A stretch of 39,827 bases of DNA, from the IMG/VR virus record IMGVR_UViG_3300015262_000002, positions 1 through 39,827 of that record, one strand, 5' to 3'. Below the pieces are notes generated by a model. It searched no databases. It was not told the origin of the DNA and worked only from the letters and a program-made list of their open reading frames with translations. Source of the stretch: a virus (lineage: Duplodnaviria > Heunggongvirae > Uroviricota > Caudoviricetes). Shown one piece after another: positions 17,942 through 36,181 of the stretch (the first letter of the stretch is position 1; each line of letters begins with the position of its first letter). The translations under genes and the position numbers were made by a program.

Positions 17942-17968
17942 AAAAAGAAACCCTCGGTTAAGAGGGTT
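17942..17968 (-). terminator. Terminator of leftward genes
   Basis: AACCCTC-N6-GAGGGTT with TTTCTTTTT on minus strand. Confidence 0.8.
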
Positions 17969-17986
17969 GATAATAAAGTATAAAAC

Positions 17987-18532
17987 TTAAAGAAGGTGTT
18001 TCCAAGTCTTACCTTCTGTGATCATTCTTGCTGTACCCTCGGATATACCAAACTCTTTAGCAAGTTTTGTCCGTTGACCGTAAATTCCTTTTACTTCTTC
18101 CCAGCGTTTACGCAGTTCAATAACTAGATTGTCAGTCATGACAGCAAGATGATGATCTGTACCTTTTGCTACACTATCAACCACTTTCTCAAACTTAACG
18201 CTTCTTTGGTAGTGTTCCTTGTTATCATCAGGTAAGACCCATTCAAGATTAACCATTGTATTATTTTCGATATTTAAATCTTTGTGGTTGACTTCCAAAT
18301 CATCCATTGCTGGGTTTGGTTGGAATGTAATCATCACCAGACGATGAACCAACATTGACTTTCGTTTACCATCTCCGTAATATAGCTGGACAGTAGTATA
18401 CCCGACTGTGTTCGGACTACCTTTTAGAACCTTCTCAACCTTCCGGTATGGTTTTACAAGACTCTTAACCCTACCCAAATTACTCACTTGATAACAACCT
18501 TCAAACCCTGCGATATCTTTCCATTCTTCCAC
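17987..18532 (-). CDS. NUMOD4-HNH homing-type endonuclease
   Basis: EEWKDI...YQVSNLGRVKS; VHRLV ... VNHKD ... NN ... NLEW. Confidence 0.9.
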   Translation of the reverse strand: MEEWKDIAGFEGCYQVSNLGRVKSLVKPYRKVEKVLKGSPNTVGYTTVQLYYGDGKRKSMLVHRLVMITFQPNPAMDDLEVNHKDLNIENNTMVNLEWVLPDDNKEHYQRSVKFEKVVDSVAKGTDHHLAVMTDNLVIELRKRWEEVKGIYGQRTKLAKEFGISEGTARMITEGKTWKHLL

Positions 18533-18553
18533 TCTACTTTCTCCTTAAACGTG

Positions 18554-18576
18554 AAAAACCCCTACAATGAGGGGTT
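18554..18576 (-). terminator. Rho-independent terminator
   Basis: AACCCCT-CATTGT-AGGGGTT then TTT on minus strand. Confidence 0.8.
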
Positions 18577-18602
18577 GTTTTGTTAATCATTTGTACACTA
18601 TG

Positions 18603-18836
18603 TTAGAACCACCGTGAATCCTCATGAACTACAAAGTCATTGTACTCAGGATACGTTTCATCAATGTATACACGTAGTTCACTTTCGTTTTCTGCCCAGC
18701 CACCTACAATGTCTGTTTCAATCAGTACATTACCTAATGAATCGAACACAGTTAGCTCTTGTGCGCTGTATGAACAGCATTCACAACCTTCCACATAGCT
18801 GTCATATGTGTATTTGATTACGTATTGATTCGTCAT
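18603..18836 (-). CDS. Hypothetical acidic protein
   Basis: ATGA-coupled. Confidence 0.7.
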   Translation of the reverse strand: MTNQYVIKYTYDSYVEGCECCSYSAQELTVFDSLGNVLIETDIVGGWAENESELRVYIDETYPEYNDFVVHEDSRWF

Positions 18837-19327
18837 GCTGCTTTCCTTTTATCTGCTTTCCATAGTTGATTGGCGTGTTCTTTAACCGCTAATTGTGGTC
18901 GTCGGCGTGTGCACCATGCCTTGATTGCTTTTAAGTCTCTACGTTGTGCTTCTTCACACCATTTAAGTCTTGCCCATGTCAAATTTGTTTTTAGTTCAAG
19001 TACATCAACCAGTGTAAAGCGAGTACTTGACATCAACCAATGTTCTTTTGTGACATGTGAGTCATATACATTATATGGAACACGTGCTTTTACTTGTCTA
19101 CGTGTGCGATAGACATACACCTTACCTGTTTCACCTGACCTACAATCAGAGCCTACGTCAATTGCCGACATGCAATGTGCGGCTGTTGGTGCTACACATA
19201 TTCTTTTAGTATATGGTTCACCTTCTGACATTCCCCAAGGTTGACGAGGGTGTAGAGTCATTGTAGTACCCATATCTTTCTCGGTAATGAAATACCAATA
19301 CCTTGAGTCATGCCATTTCATGATCAC
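18833..19327 (-). CDS. Hypothetical protein (E-x-x-x-x-RICVAP motif)
   Basis: Coupled ORF. Confidence 0.75.
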   Translation of the reverse strand: MIMKWHDSRYWYFITEKDMGTTMTLHPRQPWGMSEGEPYTKRICVAPTAAHCMSAIDVGSDCRSGETGKVYVYRTRRQVKARVPYNVYDSHVTKEHWLMSSTRFTLVDVLELKTNLTWARLKWCEEAQRRDLKAIKAWCTRRRPQLAVKEHANQLWKADKRKAA

Positions 19328-19512
19328 ACCTTAATTAAAATGGCATTCCGCCAAACTTGTGGATAAGTTACAAACTCTCTCTGATCGATTACAGCATGTA
19401 CCCGGATACCAGATTGTGTATAACCATCCATGACGAAAGTAACCACGTCAAATACAAATGGTTCAATTTCCTCAAGTACAACTTTACCAAGATAACCTAA
19501 ATCAATGTTCAT
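19324..19512 (-). CDS. Hypothetical protein
   Basis: Coupled ORF. Confidence 0.65.
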   Translation of the reverse strand: MNIDLGYLGKVVLEEIEPFVFDVVTFVMDGYTQSGIRVHAVIDQREFVTYPQVWRNAILIKV

Positions 19513-19780
19513 TGTCGCTCTCCATTATTTCGAATACAGCACCTTCAATTGTAGGGTATGGTTGCCAGTGACTAACGAGATATAGTGAGTCATATCGATT
19601 CCCACTCTTTCCCCAAGTTGACCAACCTTCAGAATCAATATCATGTAGACGTGCTGCGAATACTTCTCGTAGTGGTTTCTTTTGTCTGTCGTACCAGTCA
19701 CCCATATTACGATCTTGAATGACTAACGCCCAAGTACCAATTGGTGGTAGTTCATCTAGAACACTAATCCATTCAGTCAT
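19502..19780 (-). CDS. DUF551-like protein
   Basis: N-terminal EWISV-x-x-ELP and C-terminal VSHWQP-x-P. Confidence 0.65.
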   Translation of the reverse strand: MTEWISVLDELPPIGTWALVIQDRNMGDWYDRQKKPLREVFAARLHDIDSEGWSTWGKSGNRYDSLYLVSHWQPYPTIEGAVFEIMESDNEH

Positions 19781-19938
19781 TGTGGAAATCCTTCAACGGC
19801 TTCATACCAATATGTGTTACAAGGCCACTCGATACCCAAGATTGTTACTTCTTCGATGACTAGTTGCTCACTGCTTATATCACCACAATAGACAACAATG
19901 TTATCTGGTCCACGATAGTAAATTTCATAGAATGTCAT
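19777..19938 (-). CDS. 53-aa hypothetical protein (not in track)
   Basis: ATGA-coupled to next ORF. Confidence 0.55.
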   Translation of the reverse strand: MTFYEIYYRGPDNIVVYCGDISSEQLVIEEVTILGIEWPCNTYWYEAVEGFPQ

Positions 19939-19954
19939 TCGTAATCACTCATAA

Positions 19955-20221
19955 TTAATCAAAGAAGTGAGGACAGTCTGTGTCAACCAGAGTTGGACCG
20001 TCTACAGGAATACCATATGTATCAAGTTCAATATTGGCAGCTTTAGTTGCCTCTTCGATTGTGCGGTAGCGGAAAATCGATGATGAGCCATCACCACCGT
20101 ATGTAAACCCAGTGATAGGAAACCAGTCTTCACCTTCTGGACACCAGATTTCTACTACTTGGTTTTCACCACATTGTACAACCATGTCTTCAAGATTATC
20201 AATCAGGTCACGAATATTCAT
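19955..20221 (-). CDS. Hypothetical protein
   Basis: ATGA-coupled to phaZ. Confidence 0.65.
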   Translation of the reverse strand: MNIRDLIDNLEDMVVQCGENQVVEIWCPEGEDWFPITGFTYGGDGSSSIFRYRTIEEATKAANIELDTYGIPVDGPTLVDTDCPHFFD

Positions 20222-21024
20222 ACAGCCTCCAAGAAAGAGTGGATAATGGGTGTACAGCGTTCGATGTCGGTCAGTAGAAACAGATGACCGTCATTAAATA
20301 CATGTTGCACACTGTTGGGAATCAAGTTGGACAACACATGCATGTTAACCAGTGGAATGATTGGATCGTCATTACCACACAGTACCAATGTCGGTTGTCT
20401 AAGTGTGTGCAACCAAGTTAAACTGCTCCAACCGAACAACGCACCCATTTGATACTTGTACCCTTGTTCAAATGTGGGTGTCTTATCTGCAATCATCTTA
20501 CGTGCGTGAGACAGTCCTAACTTCTTGTCATGTCGGAAGCTACCACCATAAATATCTGGCGTAATACGTGCTGCAAACTCCAAATCAGTGTAGCGTTTAG
20601 GACTAGACATCAGACCAAGCACTTTGAAACTAGGAGGAACAGAGAGTACACCATGTGATGTGGCAGCAAGAATCAACTTACGACAACGTGTCGGGAACGA
20701 GTAAGCAAATTGCTGAGCAAGGAATCCACCCCAACTTAAACCGAGTGCATCCACATATTGAACACCAAGTACGTCCAGCATCTTACTTACAGTCTGTGCA
20801 AGACCTTGCATTGTGTACGCACCTGTAGTTGGTAAACTACTTCCACCAATTCCCGGTACATCAAATGCAATCACTGACAACTCTGGTGGTAGACTGTCGA
20901 TGAATGGAAGTACTAGTTCCAAACTTGCACCAATCCCATTAAAGAATAGCACCGGTACAGACGAACCTTCTCGAATTGCTACCCGAATAACCTGACCATC
21001 TATATTTATTGTTCTAATGTTCAT
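20218..21024 (-). CDS. phaZ: Intracellular mcl-PHA depolymerase (alpha/beta hydrolase)
   Basis: FNGIGASLEL, FDVPGIGGS, GLSWGG lipase box, AQQFA, GNDDPIIPLVNM, DGHLFLL as in Pseudomonas PhaZ. Confidence 0.88.
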   Translation of the reverse strand: MNIRTINIDGQVIRVAIREGSSVPVLFFNGIGASLELVLPFIDSLPPELSVIAFDVPGIGGSSLPTTGAYTMQGLAQTVSKMLDVLGVQYVDALGLSWGGFLAQQFAYSFPTRCRKLILAATSHGVLSVPPSFKVLGLMSSPKRYTDLEFAARITPDIYGGSFRHDKKLGLSHARKMIADKTPTFEQGYKYQMGALFGWSSLTWLHTLRQPTLVLCGNDDPIIPLVNMHVLSNLIPNSVQHVFNDGHLFLLTDIERCTPIIHSFLEAV

Positions 21025-21302
21025 CGTCTAACTCCATATGTACGCATTGGTGGAGCAGGTGGAGGACTACCTGATATTCGAGCAGCCTCAGAAGCATGAC
21101 GATGATCAATTTGATCATTACAATGACTCACAGATGCGGAACAATCACCACACGAGTAATGATAGTCATAACGAAAGACAGGCCATTTATAACCTCTCTC
21201 TTTCTTGAAGTCTTGTTTGCAGAATTCACATTTACGCCAAGTGAAGAGAGCGTAATGAATTCCAACATCGTGTTTGTTCACCAACTGTACTCGCTTAACC
21301 AT
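21021..21302 (-). CDS. Hypothetical Cys-containing protein
   Basis: CEFC and CGDC pairs; start uncertain. Confidence 0.6.
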   Translation of the reverse strand: MVKRVQLVNKHDVGIHYALFTWRKCEFCKQDFKKERGYKWPVFRYDYHYSCGDCSASVSHCNDQIDHRHASEAARISGSPPPAPPMRTYGVRR

Positions 21303-21513
21303 AATAACCAACAACAGTAGGGTTTGGAATTGATTTTACATATTCCTGTTTATCAATCGCATCCTGTTTCCAACCAGCGATAACACTTTCACAATGTTCA
21401 ATCGTTGAATAGGCTGTTTCCAATGACCAGAAGAACAGAAACTCGCGTTTGTAGATACGGAAGATGTAATCGTCTGGGGCAGTGTAGTGTTTAACAATTT
21501 TGTACTGTTTCAT
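21295..21513 (-). CDS. Hypothetical protein
   Basis: Coupled ORF. Confidence 0.65.
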   Translation of the reverse strand: MKQYKIVKHYTAPDDYIFRIYKREFLFFWSLETAYSTIEHCESVIAGWKQDAIDKQEYVKSIPNPTVVGYYG

Positions 21514-21989
21514 GCTGGAATACCCTCGTAAATTTCATTGAAGTGACCACGGATAACCATTCGACGTAGTGCACTGTACATATAGTCACTCTCAGCCTGC
21601 TTGTTCGCATGGAATGGTTTGTCAAACCACGCTGTGTTTGGTGGAAAACCATGAACTTTCATTATACGCTTACCAGTTGTCTCAAGCAAACCCCATCCTG
21701 TTGGAAGTTCATCAACCTTGATTAATCCCTTTGGTGTCAGCATAAAACGCCAATCACCCATGCCAATTGATGGATTTACACGGAACTTCTTCTTCCTATC
21801 AGCTAAGAAGTCAGCACGACTCGTTTTGCATTCGATGAGGCATGATACACCACTTCGAAAGCCAAGGCAATCAGGCATTTCACCAGAGTTGGTACTTGCT
21901 CGAAACTTATCATGAAATACAACACCGAAACCATTTGACTTTAGGAACTTCTCGGCCTGTAGACACAGACTGTCGTGTGTAATTGTCAT
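21510..21989 (-). CDS. PD-(D/E)xK nuclease, MmcB-like
   Basis: EMPD ... IECKTSRADFLAD ... G-x-WRF ... ELP-x-GWGL. Confidence 0.7.
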   Translation of the reverse strand: MTITHDSLCLQAEKFLKSNGFGVVFHDKFRASTNSGEMPDCLGFRSGVSCLIECKTSRADFLADRKKKFRVNPSIGMGDWRFMLTPKGLIKVDELPTGWGLLETTGKRIMKVHGFPPNTAWFDKPFHANKQAESDYMYSALRRMVIRGHFNEIYEGIPA

Positions 21990-22261
21990 GGCGTGCAGAA
22001 CTCATTACGTCCGCAATAGTTTTCACTACCGTACATCTCACTTAGTTCACAATCTGGCTGATAACTTTCGCCGCATGACCGACAGTTCAAAGTCCAACCG
22101 CAATCACGAGCAGTATCATCCATAAATCCAATTTGATCGTTCTTCGAATGAACTGTTTTACGTAAGTCGTATACAATACCCAGAAGGTTACTGACTGTGG
22201 CACCTTCGGGTGAGTGTTGCGCACCTTCAAGGAACGTTTTTACAAAATCATCTTTCGTCAT
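21986..22261 (-). CDS. Hypothetical protein with C-terminal Zn-ribbon-like Cys
   Basis: CRSC ... CGRNEFC. Confidence 0.65.
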   Translation of the reverse strand: MTKDDFVKTFLEGAQHSPEGATVSNLLGIVYDLRKTVHSKNDQIGFMDDTARDCGWTLNCRSCGESYQPDCELSEMYGSENYCGRNEFCTP

Positions 22262-22722
22262 TAAATATTCTCCAGTCTAATTATACCTTCGGAACGTTGG
22301 TCCACTCGTTGAGCACCACAAACAACTACTTGCCAATCGCCTGCTCCTTGTGGATGTTCAAGTGTTCCGCTTATCTTGCGAAGTTCTTTGAACTCTTTAC
22401 CCCATGGACCAGTGATCAGCAATGTACGACAACCTGTACTCTTGGTAATACGATGAAAACTATCTTTCGGAATGAACAGGAAGCGTTTACGACTGCGTTT
22501 CAGTGGAACAATCTGATCTTGGTCAACAATCTCTTCCATGTAATCACCAGAAAGCAGAATGCTCACGGCATTGAAGGCGTGAGTATGGAATCGATCTTGG
22601 TCACCATCTGTTTTATGGAAATGGAACAACTTAATACTGAAGAATCGCTTCCATTCGAGAATAGTAAGTTCGGTAACTGACTGATCACCAAGATTGATCT
22701 TCTTAGTCTTCCAGAATACCAT
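22261..22722 (-). CDS. Cupin-fold protein
   Basis: FHTHAFN ... SG-x-Y-x-E ... FHRI ... TLLITGP. Confidence 0.7.
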   Translation of the reverse strand: MVFWKTKKINLGDQSVTELTILEWKRFFSIKLFHFHKTDGDQDRFHTHAFNAVSILLSGDYMEEIVDQDQIVPLKRSRKRFLFIPKDSFHRITKSTGCRTLLITGPWGKEFKELRKISGTLEHPQGAGDWQVVVCGAQRVDQRSEGIIRLENI

Positions 22723-22910
22723 TAGACAGTTTCCTTAACGAATATCTTCTGAGTGACATTGCTAATAAAGTAACCACCAAGCAACATGTACGTCAAGTTC
22801 TCAAATGCAGAAACCGGAAGTTTACCGTAGCACAACATGATCGTGAATACTGTTTGGAACACAACAGCAAGCCAAAACTTACGACTGATATATTTATCTA
22901 CAGTGTCCAT
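22722..22910 (-). CDS. Small two-TM protein (holin-like pattern)
   Basis: SRKFWL then two hydrophobic helices. Confidence 0.55.
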   Translation of the reverse strand: MDTVDKYISRKFWLAVVFQTVFTIMLCYGKLPVSAFENLTYMLLGGYFISNVTQKIFVKETV

Positions 22911-23110
22911 TAGTCAACAATCTCAATGTCAATATAACATTCAAGAATTGAAAGCATGTGACTTTCACTCTCACACTTGCTCAAGTCGATACCATGATGT
23001 TTACCAATGTTGAGCATATGCTGACCAATCCAAGTCTGAGTGCCCATGAATACATCATCCTGATACAGACTAAAGACCGTACAGGCGTCATCCAATTTAA
23101 TCTTGTACAT
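22910..23110 (-). CDS. Hypothetical protein
   Basis: Packed ORF; start uncertain. Confidence 0.6.
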   Translation of the reverse strand: MYKIKLDDACTVFSLYQDDVFMGTQTWIGQHMLNIGKHHGIDLSKCESESHMLSILECYIDIEIVD

Positions 23111-23285
23111 AGTATTCCTCTTCAATTTGTGTTCCCCAGATGGTCATTGCCTTATCCAGAGTGTAATAGTAAATATTGGCGTGTCGTTGAAATGTTAGAT
23201 CCTTTCGAATCTCTTCATTCATTGGTTGGTCACGCCAGAACTTTGGTGGATCTGGATTGCACTCAGGACAATTGTTCACTATCAA
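23097..23285 (-). CDS. Hypothetical protein
   Basis: Coupled ORF. Confidence 0.5.
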   Translation of the reverse strand: MIVNNCPECNPDPPKFWRDQPMNEEIRKDLTFQRHANIYYYTLDKAMTIWGTQIEEEYYVQD

Positions 23286-23539
23286 CGTTTACTCTTTCCG
23301 CTTGTCTTTACCATCGTGAACACGAATCCGTAGATTGCCCAACCAATGAATGCAATGACACATAGGAAGAAAGTTACAATCATTAAGTCAGTGAAGTTCT
23401 TTAACATGAAGAACAAGAACCACATTGTAGCGATAATGCCGACAATCAAACCGATTGTTTTCAGATGCAGTTTCGTATTATCACCAAACCCATTGTACTT
23501 GTCAACAATTTTGTTGAACAATGCCTTTATTTTACCCAT
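23282..23539 (-). CDS. Two-TM membrane protein
   Basis: Two hydrophobic segments; GAGGAG SD. Confidence 0.7.
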   Translation of the reverse strand: MGKIKALFNKIVDKYNGFGDNTKLHLKTIGLIVGIIATMWFLFFMLKNFTDLMIVTFFLCVIAFIGWAIYGFVFTMVKTSGKSKR

Positions 23540-24251: not shown

Positions 24252-24439
24252 TCCATCTGACTCCCATCCAGATTTCGAATTTGTGTCATCACACCGTCGT
24301 ATGTATGTGTATACCGACGCTGTACTTTCTCTAACCAAACTCGCGTTTCCTTATCTGGTCCAGTGTTCACCCAAATTGGATACCAAGCATACCAGTCGTG
24401 CCACTCAAACTTGTTCTTCTGAATTATCTTCTTTCTCAT
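24248..24439 (-). CDS. Hypothetical protein (WH-x-W-x-AWYP motif)
   Basis: Coupled ORF. Confidence 0.7.
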   Translation of the reverse strand: MRKKIIQKNKFEWHDWYAWYPIWVNTGPDKETRVWLEKVQRRYTHTYDGVMTQIRNLDGSQME

Positions 24440-24819
24440 CGTCCGTTCCTCACTCCAAAATGTTTCAACAGAATGTCATTCATCTCAGCAAACAACTTCG
24501 GACTTGTTTCACGCATCTTAGCCATACCAGTTCCAATCCCATTATGTGGGAACACAATCGTATGTCGCTTTGCTAAAACGAATAGTTGTCTCAAAGCCTT
24601 TTTCACATGTTCAAACTCACAAGGACTATCTGTGAAGAATGAACCAGCTTTCATTGATGGGTAACGTTTGGTTGGTATTCCAAATGCATTAGGTTCGTTA
24701 CGGATACACGCTTGCCCAGCTGTACCATACCCGGCTAAATTATCGCCAAATATAAATACTGAGCTGGGGAATTCGCGACACTTACGAACCGTTAGTTCAT
24801 TAGTGTATTCAATTAACAT
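24436..24819 (-). CDS. Conserved-looking phage protein (FIFGDN...GQA.IR.EPNA.GIPTK)
   Basis: GGAGG SD; function unknown. Confidence 0.7.
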   Translation of the reverse strand: MLIEYTNELTVRKCREFPSSVFIFGDNLAGYGTAGQACIRNEPNAFGIPTKRYPSMKAGSFFTDSPCEFEHVKKALRQLFVLAKRHTIVFPHNGIGTGMAKMRETSPKLFAEMNDILLKHFGVRNGR

Positions 24820-26462: not shown

Positions 26463-27083
26463 TTAGCTAATTACATCAAACTTTTCATATACAACCCAAC
26501 CACCTTCCGTCTCAGGTCCGTCGTTGTCGATCACGTAAGCTCCTGCTTTGAAGTAGAACGGATATTCATCCCAAAGAGGGCTTACGTCAAGCACGTAATA
26601 TGATTCATTAATTGTAGCATGTAGAACACCATCCATACCCAATACGACACCATATTCAAATGCTTCACCGAGTGCACATGGAACAGACAGTACTTTACTT
26701 GCTGAGCTTGTTGGTGTAAGTCTAAAATCAATCCTTGCAAACCCATTCCACCATGTAACCATCAAGAATGGGTTTGGTGCTTTACTAGCATGGATTTGGC
26801 CGACGATTACTTTACCACTACTTGGTGCCAATTCAACTCTAACAGTACCAAACATTGCATTTAGCGACTCACCTGCTCGCCAATTATATGGTTCGCTTGA
26901 TTCAGGAAGTGTCTGACGACTCTCTGTACGTGGACTGCTACTTGAACCAGAGGTATCACCTTGCACAGAACACCAGTAGTTTGTATGACCTTTTGGGTCT
27001 GTCCATACTAGGTCACTTGGTGGTACGTCTGGATACAAATAGACAGTACCATGCGCTGTTACATTACCAAAACTATACATCAT
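26463..27083 (-). CDS. Polysaccharide lyase family 7 (alginate lyase-like)
   Basis: PRTESRQ, GQIH, YFKAGAY; true start may be 27080. Confidence 0.8.
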   Translation of the reverse strand: MMYSFGNVTAHGTVYLYPDVPPSDLVWTDPKGHTNYWCSVQGDTSGSSSSPRTESRQTLPESSEPYNWRAGESLNAMFGTVRVELAPSSGKVIVGQIHASKAPNPFLMVTWWNGFARIDFRLTPTSSASKVLSVPCALGEAFEYGVVLGMDGVLHATINESYYVLDVSPLWDEYPFYFKAGAYVIDNDGPETEGGWVVYEKFDVIS

Positions 27084-29291: not shown

Positions 29292-29485
29292 GCAACCACC
29301 TTGTATTCAAACTCACCAGAGAACACAGCTTGACAATGCCCGTATTCAACTTCTACAACTGGAATTTGTCGGATATATGCAGAGCCACACTTACCGAAAA
29401 AACCTTCAGTGTGAATCAGTTCACCATTCTTATTGTAGATAGAGACTGTCGCATCACCATACAATTTATCAACTAAAATCCTCAT
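29288..29485 (-). CDS. Hypothetical protein
   Basis: Coupled ORF. Confidence 0.7.
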   Translation of the reverse strand: MRILVDKLYGDATVSIYNKNGELIHTEGFFGKCGSAYIRQIPVVEVEYGHCQAVFSGEFEYKVVA

Positions 29486-29901
29486 ACGCTCTCCTCATAT
29501 TGTTCAACATGAACACCGTGACGTTTCAGAAACTCAATACCCTCAGTCATTCGATATTGCTCATCATAAAATACACCGACAACACCAGCTTGAAACATCT
29601 GCATTGCACACGGAAGGCATGGACTGAGAGTGACAATAACATTTGCACCCTTCAAAGAAATACCTTCACGTGCGGCCTTTGCCACCAAGTTGCTCTCACA
29701 ATGTAGAACTTCTGGGTGTGTTAGTTCAGGCGACAGTTCGCAAACATTGTCATCGCCAGATGGTCTACCGTTCCACGAGTATACCAGAACATCTTGTGGT
29801 GTTACAGCAATACCACCAACCTTCTTTCGAACAGCATGTGACAGCTGAGCAAATGCCCGAGCTGTCTGCATGTAAGGACGTATCATTTTATGTTTCATCA
29901 T
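29482..29901 (-). CDS. dCMP deaminase
   Basis: HCESN and PCLPC zinc motifs. Confidence 0.88.
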   Translation of the reverse strand: MMKHKMIRPYMQTARAFAQLSHAVRKKVGGIAVTPQDVLVYSWNGRPSGDDNVCELSPELTHPEVLHCESNLVAKAAREGISLKGANVIVTLSPCLPCAMQMFQAGVVGVFYDEQYRMTEGIEFLKRHGVHVEQYEESV

Positions 29902-29990
29902 TTCCGAACATCCATAATCATGCAATAAGTCATCGACAGTATGAAAATGATGAAACTAATACCAAGACCACACATTATGATATCAATCAT
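29898..29990 (-). CDS. 30-aa membrane peptide (not in track)
   Basis: Fills gap; ATGA-coupled to deaminase. Confidence 0.5.
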   Translation of the reverse strand: MIDIIMCGLGISFIIFILSMTYCMIMDVRK

Positions 29991-33020: not shown

Positions 33021-34826
33021 TTACACCATCAGTTTTGCACGAATCTCATCAAGGGATGTTTGGTTGTAGAAACTACCATCCAAGAATCGAATCTTCAGCA
33101 TGTTGGATTCACTCTGTTCAACCTCACGAGTGACATTATCGGTCAATACATACTCACCATCAACCAAACCAACATACAACAGACCTTTAGCACTCTTCTT
33201 CTTACTATCAGTCTTTGGATCTTTGAAGATTGGAATCTCTTTACCGTTGACTTCTGTATAAGTTGCCTTAACTGCAAAACCGAACGTATCACGTGTTACA
33301 CATTGGTAAGTGTAAGAACCAACACCGAACATTGCATTACCTGAAGCATAGCCCTTGTCAAACAGTCGCTCAAGGATTGTTTGGCAACGATTGGTAGTAA
33401 TCGAGTCGCCATAGATCAAACCAATATGGTCATTCATCAAGCGGTGTCCAGTGGAAGTTTCAGTGTATCCGAAGATATCCATCAATACTTCAACAGCACC
33501 TTTCTGCTCTACAGTCAGGTCAACTTCACGAGCATACCAACCAGTGAAGTGTTTACTATCATAGTAACGTTCTTTGTGAACATATCCGTCGATTGAAACA
33601 ATAACTCCATCCGATGTACGACCAATAAAGCTTGCCTCATCACCACCATCAAGACCTTCAACAACACTGTAACCAATGTCACTAATTGAATCACTAGCTT
33701 CATCAGATTGCTCATCCAACTCAGCGAAAGTGTGCGGAATGCAAATAATCTTAGCACCACAAATCACTTCAACAGGATCACCAGAGTCTGGACGAATAAC
33801 CAAACGACCGGGAGTAACACCATTCGATTGACGACGAAGGATAACTTCTTTCAGATATGGAAGACCACGAGAAATCAAACCGTAGAAGTCAAAGCTGTCA
33901 GCTACATAAGACAGAATACCAACTGGAAACTTCAACATCAGTTCATACATGAACATGATTTCAGCAATCAGTCGAGGATCTTCACTATTCGAAACCATAT
34001 CAAGATAAATCTGAGCTTGCTCTGGATTCTTGAACTTGTAACTTAGTTCTGCAAGTTCTTGTTCAATTCGCAGAATGTTACTTGTGCTTACAGCGTGCTC
34101 AGTTGCAGGTACAGAACAAGCTACAAAGTTACCGGCCTTATAGTACTGTTGAGCGTATAACACAGTACCCAGCGAATCACTACCCAAGAAACTACCAACG
34201 TGACCGAAACCAGAACGTGCAGCATCTTCAGGACCAGACATGCCACGGTCAGCAAAGCTGTGTGCTTGGATATTAACTACTTCAAGAGCAGTACCTGTAC
34301 GAATTGCATAGTCGGTCAACATCGCTCGGTATTCAGCAGCAATAGTTGCAGCCGTGCTTGGTTTCCAAGTCAGGTTACTGATTACAGTTTCAAGGAAGTT
34401 AACCAGCCAGAAAGCGTGTTTCACAGTGTTACGAATAGTCAGGACAGGAATGCCCATGTTTACCTTAGTGCCTTCATCCAGAGTACGGATTTCCAGCGGG
34501 AGATAACCAAGATCATGCAACTTCGACAGACGATCAACAGTAATGATGTCGTAACCGAAGTAACTGTCACACAGAAGTTTGAAACGACCGAGTGCAATAC
34601 CTTTATCCATCTTGAAGAAGTCATCCCACATTTCAACGACTTCCATCACGGCACCTTGGTGACCAATTACAACCAACTTGCCATCATAATACTTCGTGCA
34701 CGAACGACGATAAATACTATCCGAACGCGGTGTCAGGTTTGACGATACAACTTCAGTACCATCTGCATACATGTCCATGTGGCCAAGTTTATAGCCATCA
34801 CTCATGAAAGCGGCAAAAAGTTTCAT
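33021..34826 (-). CDS. namat: NAMPT-family protein; probable Namat of NARP1
   Basis: SDGYKLGH, H-S-F-x-x-RG, VPATEH, S-x-V-x-DS, IRPDSG, LIYGDSI, FGVGS; paired with PRPS-like gene. Confidence 0.88.
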   Translation of the reverse strand: MKLFAAFMSDGYKLGHMDMYADGTEVVSSNLTPRSDSIYRRSCTKYYDGKLVVIGHQGAVMEVVEMWDDFFKMDKGIALGRFKLLCDSYFGYDIITVDRLSKLHDLGYLPLEIRTLDEGTKVNMGIPVLTIRNTVKHAFWLVNFLETVISNLTWKPSTAATIAAEYRAMLTDYAIRTGTALEVVNIQAHSFADRGMSGPEDAARSGFGHVGSFLGSDSLGTVLYAQQYYKAGNFVACSVPATEHAVSTSNILRIEQELAELSYKFKNPEQAQIYLDMVSNSEDPRLIAEIMFMYELMLKFPVGILSYVADSFDFYGLISRGLPYLKEVILRRQSNGVTPGRLVIRPDSGDPVEVICGAKIICIPHTFAELDEQSDEASDSISDIGYSVVEGLDGGDEASFIGRTSDGVIVSIDGYVHKERYYDSKHFTGWYAREVDLTVEQKGAVEVLMDIFGYTETSTGHRLMNDHIGLIYGDSITTNRCQTILERLFDKGYASGNAMFGVGSYTYQCVTRDTFGFAVKATYTEVNGKEIPIFKDPKTDSKKKSAKGLLYVGLVDGEYVLTDNVTREVEQSESNMLKIRFLDGSFYNQTSLDEIRAKLMV

Positions 34827-35341: not shown

Positions 35342-36181
35342 TTAGTATACCGAAATGATACGGACAATACCGTTATTCTTGTCGCTTATGATGCTGTCCG
35401 TAGTATAGATTGTGTCATAGTGCTTTGCAACAACATCTACACCTTTCGAGAACAATCCGTGTGTAACGGCAAGGTCAAGATTAGAAACATTACCTGTAGC
35501 CTCAAGAAGCTGTGCTACTTCGATGAATGTACGACCACCATCACACAGGTCATCCAAAACCAAGATGTTAGCGGATTCAGGAACATAGTCAAGCACTTTC
35601 AAACCGATGATCTTACCAGTAAGCTTGTCGCGTTCTTTTGCACAGGTGATAACACCAGCAGCACCAACAGCTTTTGCAAACGCTTCACACTTCTTACTTG
35701 CACCAGCATCTGGAGCAACAATGTAAACTTCTCGAAAACTCGGATAGATATTACGGAAGATATCTAATTGAGTAACCTCAACCATGTTATCAATACAAGC
35801 ATCAGCGACGATACTGTGGGCGTCAAGGACGAACACTGATGAGAAACCCATAGAGTTGATCATCTTTCCAATTACTTTCAAGCTGTTAGGCTCACCAGCA
35901 TTCACAGCACGATCTTGACGGCTGTATGGAATGTAAGGTAGTTCCAATTCCAACTTAGCAACAGGGTATTGACGTTTTACAGCATCAACAACCATCGCAA
36001 GTGCAATGATGTCATCATTGATTGTAAACCCCTCACTACCAAAGATGCAAGTGATTTTAACCAGATCGTTTGTAAAGTCTTTTGCCTGACTACCCACTTG
36101 GATATCAACCCCGACACAACCGTCAGGAAACTTCCATTGACGAACAGTGGTTTGTATATTACCCACGTTATACTTAATCAT
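35342..36181 (-). CDS. adps: PRPS-family protein; probable Adps of NARP1
   Basis: FPDG, PY-x-PYSRQDR, D-x-HS, APDAGA, LDDLCDGGRTF, THGLFS. Confidence 0.88.
   Translation of the reverse strand: MIKYNVGNIQTTVRQWKFPDGCVGVDIQVGSQAKDFTNDLVKITCIFGSEGFTINDDIIALAMVVDAVKRQYPVAKLELELPYIPYSRQDRAVNAGEPNSLKVIGKMINSMGFSSVFVLDAHSIVADACIDNMVEVTQLDIFRNIYPSFREVYIVAPDAGASKKCEAFAKAVGAAGVITCAKERDKLTGKIIGLKVLDYVPESANILVLDDLCDGGRTFIEVAQLLEATGNVSNLDLAVTHGLFSKGVDVVAKHYDTIYTTDSIISDKNNGIVRIISVY

Follow-up and report, generated by a model that had tools for sequence, protein, structure and literature searches.

Does a phage that carries a gene for a polyester-degrading enzyme use it to open the carbon store of its host, and is this gene a genuine part of the phage genome? 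These questions are raised by the IMG/VR virus record IMGVR_UViG_3300015262_000002 (Caudoviricetes), of which positions 1 to 39,827 were analyzed (39,827 nucleotides, denoted here as the window). On the minus strand, the window harbors an open reading frame (ORF) of 268 amino acids (aa), termed phaZ in the following (20218..21024). A first-pass annotation, made from the sequence alone, had described it as a full-length hydrolase resembling PhaZ, the depolymerase of poly(3-hydroxyalkanoates) (PHAs), with intact Ser, Asp, and His residues, translationally coupled into a phage operon without phaC, and indicative of a Pseudomonas host. The ORF and the features ascribed to it stood up to closer analysis. 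The enzyme is predicted to be of the type that degrades medium-chain-length PHA (mcl-PHA) inside the cell, and its best-supported task, which we regard as fairly probable, would be to mobilize host PHA for phage replication.

The family assignment is carried by the NCBIfam model TIGR02240 (poly(3-hydroxyalkanoate) depolymerase), an equivalog model with a curated cut-off of 250.6 bits. The window protein matches it with 313.9 bits (E = 8.8e-94) over model positions 4-264 of 276, in keeping with a full-length PhaZ-like hydrolase, and the runner-up NCBIfam family, 3-oxoadipate enol-lactonase, reaches 94 bits only. Pfam recognizes only the general alpha/beta-hydrolase fold (Abhydrolase_1). The PHROGs assignment is ‘esterase/lipase’ (PHROG 789) with 87.8 bits, far below the TIGR02240 score. 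Searches of the PDB by sequence and by fold yielded no solved structure of the TIGR02240 family and returned generic esterases, e.g. Est1 (6eb3/8v16); the match to 6eb3 has an E-value of 9e-21 at 26-29% identity, and the polyhydroxybutyrate (PHB) depolymerase of Bacillus thuringiensis ranks lower. A fold search of BFVD found nothing close, with generic alpha/beta hydrolases only. With the TIGR02240 score being far higher, a generic esterase/lipase identity (PHROG 789, Est1-like) was ruled out. Compared with PhaZ of approximately 80 species of the Pseudomonas group (including P. aeruginosa and P. oleovorans), the window protein shows 53-57% identity.

The catalytic triad noted at first sight consists of Ser97 (GLSWG), Asp220 (NDDP), and His247 (DGHL), and all three residues are invariant in 241/241 aligned homologues. 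In PhaZKT, the enzyme of P. putida KT2440/KT2442, the triad is S102/D221/H248 and the lid comprises residues 133-192; deletion of the FNGIG loop, of the YYWQLF hinge (190-195), or of the lid inactivates this enzyme (De Eugenio et al., 2025; PMC12504323). The FNGIG loop is present in the phage protein, with N29, G30, I31, and G32 at least 98% conserved. In total, 62 positions of the 241-homologue alignment are conserved to at least 98%, and 15 of them belong to the lid, the part that determines substrate specificity. An AlphaFold2 (AF2) model built from 69 sequences (predicted local distance difference test (pLDDT) 94.3, predicted template modeling score (pTM) 0.92) shows the core and a full-length helical lid, with helices across residues 133-207. 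When aligned with PhaZ of Pseudomonas, the phage protein shows no deletion in this lid. Judged by inspection, the protein is cytoplasmic: a hydrophobic stretch is lacking at the N-terminus (MNIRTINIDGQ), which makes up the first beta-strand in the model. Accordingly, the phage protein is predicted to be a catalytically competent serine hydrolase that works in the cytoplasm and belongs, with PhaZ, to the depolymerases acting on mcl-PHA inside the cell.

Several features mark phaZ as a resident of the phage genome. It is translationally coupled with phage ORFs on both sides, as had been proposed: the phaZ start, with a GGAG motif 7 nt ahead of it, shares an ATGA with the stop codon of the upstream 97-aa ORF, and a second ATGA joins the phaZ stop to the start of the downstream ORF. 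The GC content at third codon positions (GC3) is 0.37, compared with a mean of 0.82 for bacterial phaZ genes, and the GC content of the gene matches that of the phage (41.8%). Across 40 viral phaZ loci, the GC content of phaZ follows that of its flanks (r = 0.94). The ratio of non-synonymous to synonymous substitution rates (dN/dS) against a sister phage is 0.038 (29 synonymous and 4 non-synonymous differences), other viral phaZ pairs give 0.07-0.15, and the chromosomal value is similar (0.105). The gene is thus under strong purifying selection. The matching GC and GC3 values, taken together with the low dN/dS, show that the phaZ copies have long been resident in their phage genomes, and the window copy was not acquired recently from a chromosome of Pseudomonas.

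phaZ is a recurrent phage gene type and not a one-off. IMG/VR holds 40 phaZ loci whose products are 52-61% identical to the window protein, in addition to a near-identical phage at 99%, and all viral representatives tested score above the TIGR02240 cut-off. Sixteen phaZ-bearing IMG/VR records were tested further: 11 are complete genomes (48-307 kb), and in 15 a homologue of the large terminase (TerL) of the window phage was undetectable. None of the 40 viral loci has phaC within 6 kb, and no PhaC_N domain (PF07167) was found in any of the 18 whole viral records searched. The flanks encode e.g. a jumbo-phage virion protein, a DNA ligase, an endolysin/tail protein, or a methyltransferase. Directly downstream of phaZ in a 228-kb IMG/VR jumbo phage, the ORF listing shows six tandem ORFs of ~307-331 aa (L004:6886-12667, minus strand), which may be a paralogue array. 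Among deposited phages, a single full-length relative was detected, the ‘esterase/lipase’ ORF269 of the Ralstonia jumbo phages RP12/RP31 (RP12 copy at L127:4980-5795), with 45% identity and 291 bits on TIGR02240, i.e. above the cut-off.

On the bacterial side, the 80 best loci all come from the Pseudomonas group, and in 75 of them phaZ is flanked by phaC on both sides. In no species-representative bacterial genome does the identity to the window protein exceed 57%. Metagenome proteins reach 60-71% identity and are encoded on contigs of phage-like sizes. For the nearest relatives (P0003-P0006; 67-71% identity), the size of the contigs (91-106 kb) suggests a phage origin. One bacterial copy differs in its context: P. 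lini CC269 (NZ_JAUSSR010000005.1; L047:4500-6000) encodes a 268-aa PhaZ of the phage type (57% identity to the window protein, 333 bits on TIGR02240) outside any pha cluster, on a ~1.5-kb island of 47-49% GC between flanks of 54-59% GC. A prophage around this orphan copy was ruled out, as there are no phage genes among its neighbors, which code for polysaccharide synthesis, a histidine kinase, and LysR. The copy seems to stem from the transfer of a single gene, phaZ of the phage type, into a bacterial chromosome.

Phylogenetic trees were obtained by quick searches with 27 distant representatives as outgroups. Phage-type and Pseudomonas PhaZ form one clade (support of 99 in the Shimodaira-Hasegawa-like approximate likelihood ratio test, SH-aLRT), and the chromosomal proteins with phaC flanks cluster tightly in a single clade of their own (support of 100). 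The first-pass annotation had suggested such a phylogeny and had named a closer relationship to generic esterases as the result that would speak against PhaZ; together with the equivalog score, the shared clade argues for PhaZ instead. The window protein groups with Pseudomonas PhaZ without being part of the chromosomal clade; its own subclade (95) does not include the latter, and its neighbors there are P0003-P0006 (98). This subclade is among the most diverged of phage-type PhaZ, and the RP12 copy lies outside the core clade of Pseudomonas and phage proteins. The quick trees drew the chromosomal clade as nested in the viral diversity. A tree uniting all 49 non-chromosomal sequences has a log-likelihood 36.5 units higher (approximately unbiased (AU) test, p = 0.89), and the nesting is therefore unsupported. 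A single phage-type lineage, which would be sister to the chromosomal Pseudomonas clade, is not rejected.

Within the immediate relatives of the window phage, the distribution of phaZ is patchy. Among the phages compared by TerL, the gene is present only in the one with an identical TerL (100%), and no TIGR02240 match was found in the complete genomes with 98%, 94%, and 85% identical TerL (G002, G003, and G004) or in Pseudomonas phage phiPMW. The phaZ-bearing relative (G001) provides a second, independently assembled genome with the gene, at 94% nucleotide identity. A comparison of the block 19550-22231 with IMGVR_UViG_3300041407_000052 (L139), whose terminase protein is 100% identical to that of the window phage, shows 94-95% DNA identity around phaZ and ~70% at 19550-19772 just downstream, a pattern that indicates mosaic exchange within the accessory block between these two phages. 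In the 98% relative (IMGVR_UViG_3300041411_000053), the exact phaZ slot is occupied by a 76-aa ORF (L143:2405-2635), and the neighbors of the slot are kept: ORFs of 160 aa and 72 aa and a Cys-rich one of 90 aa on one side, and an ORF of 59 aa on the other. Since the neighbors are conserved and the slot holds another ORF, phaZ is a cassette open to exchange within a hypervariable block of accessory genes. The sister phages with and without phaZ, which differ by a cassette swap, represent a natural control. Encoded in a complete phage genome and a phage operon, selected, phage-adapted, and accessory, phaZ bears the marks of an auxiliary metabolic gene.

The virus record has a length of 103,827 bp, of which the window covers the first 39.8 kb; the record ends in direct terminal repeats and is complete according to CheckV (100%). 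The genome encodes a terminase, portal, protease, major capsid protein, DNA polymerase, primase-helicase, and ligases. Its TerL is 78% identical to that of the P. putida phage phiPMW (Plaisancevirus, 103,218 bp), and two further Pseudomonas phages follow with 70% and 65%. Around phaZ, the genes follow the same order as in phiPMW (RNA ligase, polynucleotide kinase, PRPS-like, NAMPT-like, DNA ligase, Ser/Thr phosphatase, then small minus-strand ORFs). The small accessory ORFs are hardly conserved between the two phages, and a megablast search of the phaZ region against deposited phages gave no match. At a distance of 5.4 kb from phaZ, a 206-aa alginate lyase of polysaccharide lyase family 7 (PL7; Pfam Alginate_lyase2, E = 1.1e-28) is encoded, which points to an alginate-making host of the Pseudomonas type. 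On the basis of TerL and the alginate lyase, a Pseudomonas host is likely for this virulent, phiPMW-like phage, in agreement with the host to which phaZ had been taken to point. phaC is absent from all of the 103,827 bp (PF07167; tblastn with PhaC), and neither an acyl-CoA synthetase (PF00501) nor a phasin (PF05597) was found in the genome.

How could such a phage profit from a depolymerase? PHA can account for a large share of the dry mass in soil and rhizosphere pseudomonads. In the proposed course of events, phaZ, as an accessory cassette in the minus-strand block of early/middle genes, would be transcribed and translated along with its neighbors. The enzyme would attack the native mcl-PHA granules of the host during infection and free (R)-3-hydroxyalkanoic acids. 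An acyl-CoA synthetase and the beta-oxidation pathway of the host would turn these monomers into acetyl-CoA and reducing power, which could then sustain the replication of the phage in nutrient-limited cells that store carbon. The depolymerase would be the sole contribution of the phage, with all later steps run by the host. We infer the in vivo substrate, the fitness benefit, and the time at which the gene is expressed, and the fueling of replication in starved cells, already put forward in the first-pass annotation, keeps its conditional form.

A number of observations weigh against this reading. No phage PhaZ has been assayed so far, and both the substrate and the host are read from the sequence. 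The hydrophobic hinge is altered, with YKYQMG in the phage protein in place of the YYWQLF of PhaZKT (Y189 and Q192 are kept throughout the family, whereas W, L, and F have given way to other residues), and the lid is the most diverged region of the protein (47% identity vs. 58% in the core). Seventeen alignment columns, mostly in the lid, set the chromosomal clade apart from the remainder, and the TIGR02240 score of the window copy is among the lowest of the viral copies. The fold searches give generic esterases only and cannot discriminate the substrate. As the family member of RP12/RP31 resides in a Ralstonia phage, the substrate range of the family in phages may be broader; Ralstonia stores short-chain PHB, not mcl-PHA. 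phaZ is also dispensable, being absent from complete phages with 85-98% TerL identity and from phiPMW, and PHA provides carbon and energy and neither nitrogen nor phosphorus.

The lid divergence is the main argument for the strongest competitor, an esterase derived from PhaZ that acts on another ester and not on PHA granules, e.g. on 3-(3-hydroxyalkanoyloxy)alkanoic acids (rhamnolipid precursors with the same ester bond) or other lipids. That small changes in this region matter is illustrated by PhaZKT, in which a single substitution at the lid hinge (S184F) moves activity from PHA towards soluble esters (PMC12504323). The family member in the Ralstonia phages and the plain esterases among the nearest solved structures fit such an enzyme as well. 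The equivalog-level score argues for the same function, however, the 15 conserved lid positions are shared by phage and chromosomal proteins, FNGIG is intact, and no generic-esterase family scores near; a switch to another ester is therefore considered unlikely.

The same family evidence would also hold if PHA were degraded for a benefit other than energy, such as clearing bulky granules that hinder virion assembly or lysis, freeing phasins or other proteins bound to granules, or stopping the diversion of carbon into storage. In favor of this view, the phage encodes no acyl-CoA synthetase or beta-oxidation genes for the monomers, and phaZ sits amid early/middle take-over and nucleotide genes. 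The host already owns the downstream pathway, so the absence of these genes from the phage is expected either way, and we judge a non-energy benefit to be quite improbable. That phaZ is misassembled host DNA or a neutral passenger nearing loss, as its absence from close relatives and the hypervariable block might suggest, is highly improbable given the ATGA overlaps with phage ORFs on both sides, the phage-like GC3, the low dN/dS towards a second genome that was assembled independently, and the terminal repeats that mark the record as complete. Mobilization of host PHA for phage replication remains the preferred reading.

The features of the locus are compiled in the table below. A regional scan for promoters and hairpins revealed no promoter or terminator of phaZ’s own, and the promoter-like sites in the region are no commoner than in shuffled sequence; therefore, no claim is made on the timing of phaZ expression. 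Neither the upstream 97-aa nor the downstream 88-aa ORF had a match in a Pfam search. Further genes in the neighborhood encode a NUMOD4-motif protein, a DUF7831 protein, and a dCMP/cytidine deaminase, and the alginate lyase gene is placed among middle genes and not among tail genes. As in phiPMW, a NAMPT-like gene lies beside a PRPS-like gene, a pairing that we take to be the signature of phage NARP1 (Namat and Adps), i.e. NAD+ reconstitution that counters NAD-depleting immunity, and that makes the two genes a candidate for this system.

Table. Features of the phaZ locus and its surroundings in the window.
Feature	Position	Strand	Basis
phaZ-like coding sequence, alpha/beta-hydrolase core and helical lid (~residues 128-207)	20218..21024	-	TIGR02240, Pfam Abhydrolase_1, AF2 model, identity to Pseudomonas PhaZ
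phaZ start and stop codons	ATG 21024-21022; TGA 20220-20218	-	sequence
Nucleophile Ser97 codon, GLSWG (residues 95-99)	20734..20736	-	sequence; corresponds to Ser102 of PhaZKT
Asp220 codon, NDDP (residues 218-221)	20365..20367	-	sequence; corresponds to Asp221 of PhaZKT
His247 codon, DGH(L) (DGH residues 245-247)	20284..20286	-	sequence; corresponds to His248 of PhaZKT
FNGIG loop, residues 28-32, lid-core connector	20929..20943	-	motif position; role from PhaZKT (PMC12504323)
phaZ start region: GGAG Shine-Dalgarno 21035-21032, 7-nt spacer, ATGA 21024-21021	21021..21035	-	sequence
ATGA, phaZ stop overlapping start of downstream 88-aa ORF	20218..20221	-	sequence
Upstream Cys-rich 97-aa ORF	21021..21314	-	ORF call; counterpart in phaZ-less sister G002 has 90 aa
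Downstream 88-aa ORF	19955..20221	-	ORF call; counterpart across the slot in G002 has 59 aa
Likely transcription unit (weak)	17949..23505	-	best sigma70-like site upstream 23505-23477 (11/12); first strong terminator-like hairpin downstream 17968-17949
NUMOD4-motif protein, homing-endonuclease-like	17987-18532	-	
DUF7831 protein	24436-24819	-	
PL7 alginate lyase (206 aa)	26463-27083	-	Pfam Alginate_lyase2
dCMP/cytidine deaminase	29482-29925	-	
NAMPT-like (601 aa)	33021-34826	-	
PRPS-like (279 aa)	35342-36181	-	

Taken together, the findings allow a broader, tentative picture, which as a whole we hold to be possible and somewhat more doubtful than the role proposed for the single enzyme. Phage-type PhaZ would be a distinct, old, and widespread viral lineage of intracellular mcl-PHA depolymerases, and virulent phages of many unrelated types would routinely raid the polyester store of their hosts. 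The presence or absence of phaZ among near-identical phiPMW-like phages would reflect selection by the PHA status of the host, and the low-GC copy of P. lini would show backflow into bacterial chromosomes. If this is true, the mobilization of storage polymers joins the known auxiliary metabolic functions of phages, phage success is tied to the nutritional history of the host, and many natural lid variants become available for an enzyme whose engineering for the recycling of bioplastics is under way.

With regard to known systems, the enzyme family of the window phaZ is known, and undescribed so far are its lineage in phages and its role there. A 2025 paper of the main PhaZ laboratory notes that intracellular mcl-PHA depolymerization has been ascribed to Pseudomonas alone (PMC12504323), and full-text literature searches found no publication on a phage-encoded mcl-PHA depolymerase. 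Like the phage protein, PhaZKT belongs to the TIGR02240 equivalog, has no signal peptide, and combines the triad and the FNGIG loop with an alpha/beta-hydrolase fold that bears a lid. In contrast to PhaZKT, the phage protein has a diverged lid with a changed hinge and is placed outside the tight chromosomal clade; with 268 aa, it is shorter at both ends than Pseudomonas PhaZ (281-286 aa). Pseudomonas phaZ lies between phaC1 and phaC2, whereas the phage gene is carried without phaC, phasin, or phaD; the missing location in a pha cluster is a feature of the context and not of the enzyme. Phage-type PhaZ from IMG/VR shares with the window copy the stand-alone position, the absence of phaC, and purifying selection, and is found in mostly unrelated carriers. 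ORF269 of RP12/RP31 (Ripduovirus) is a full-length homologue as well, but is associated with a Ralstonia host, annotated as a generic esterase, and located outside the core clade.

Two further cases resemble the system in the proposed function. A PHB depolymerase on a viral operational taxonomic unit (vOTU) of a Gloeobacter prophage was proposed as an auxiliary metabolic gene that aids carbon use (2026 metagenome paper, PMC13436329). It differs from the window enzyme in being a short-chain PHB depolymerase known from metagenome annotation only, not of the mcl type of TIGR02240, and not encoded by virulent phages. PhaZBd, from Bdellovibrio bacteriovorus HD100, belongs to a bacterial predator and not to a virus; it represents another family, is of the extracellular type, and has no lid. 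Functionally, however, it is an analogue: PhaZBd degrades the mcl-PHA of the prey to the benefit of the predator and so provides the precedent for a gain from prey PHA (PMC7174725).

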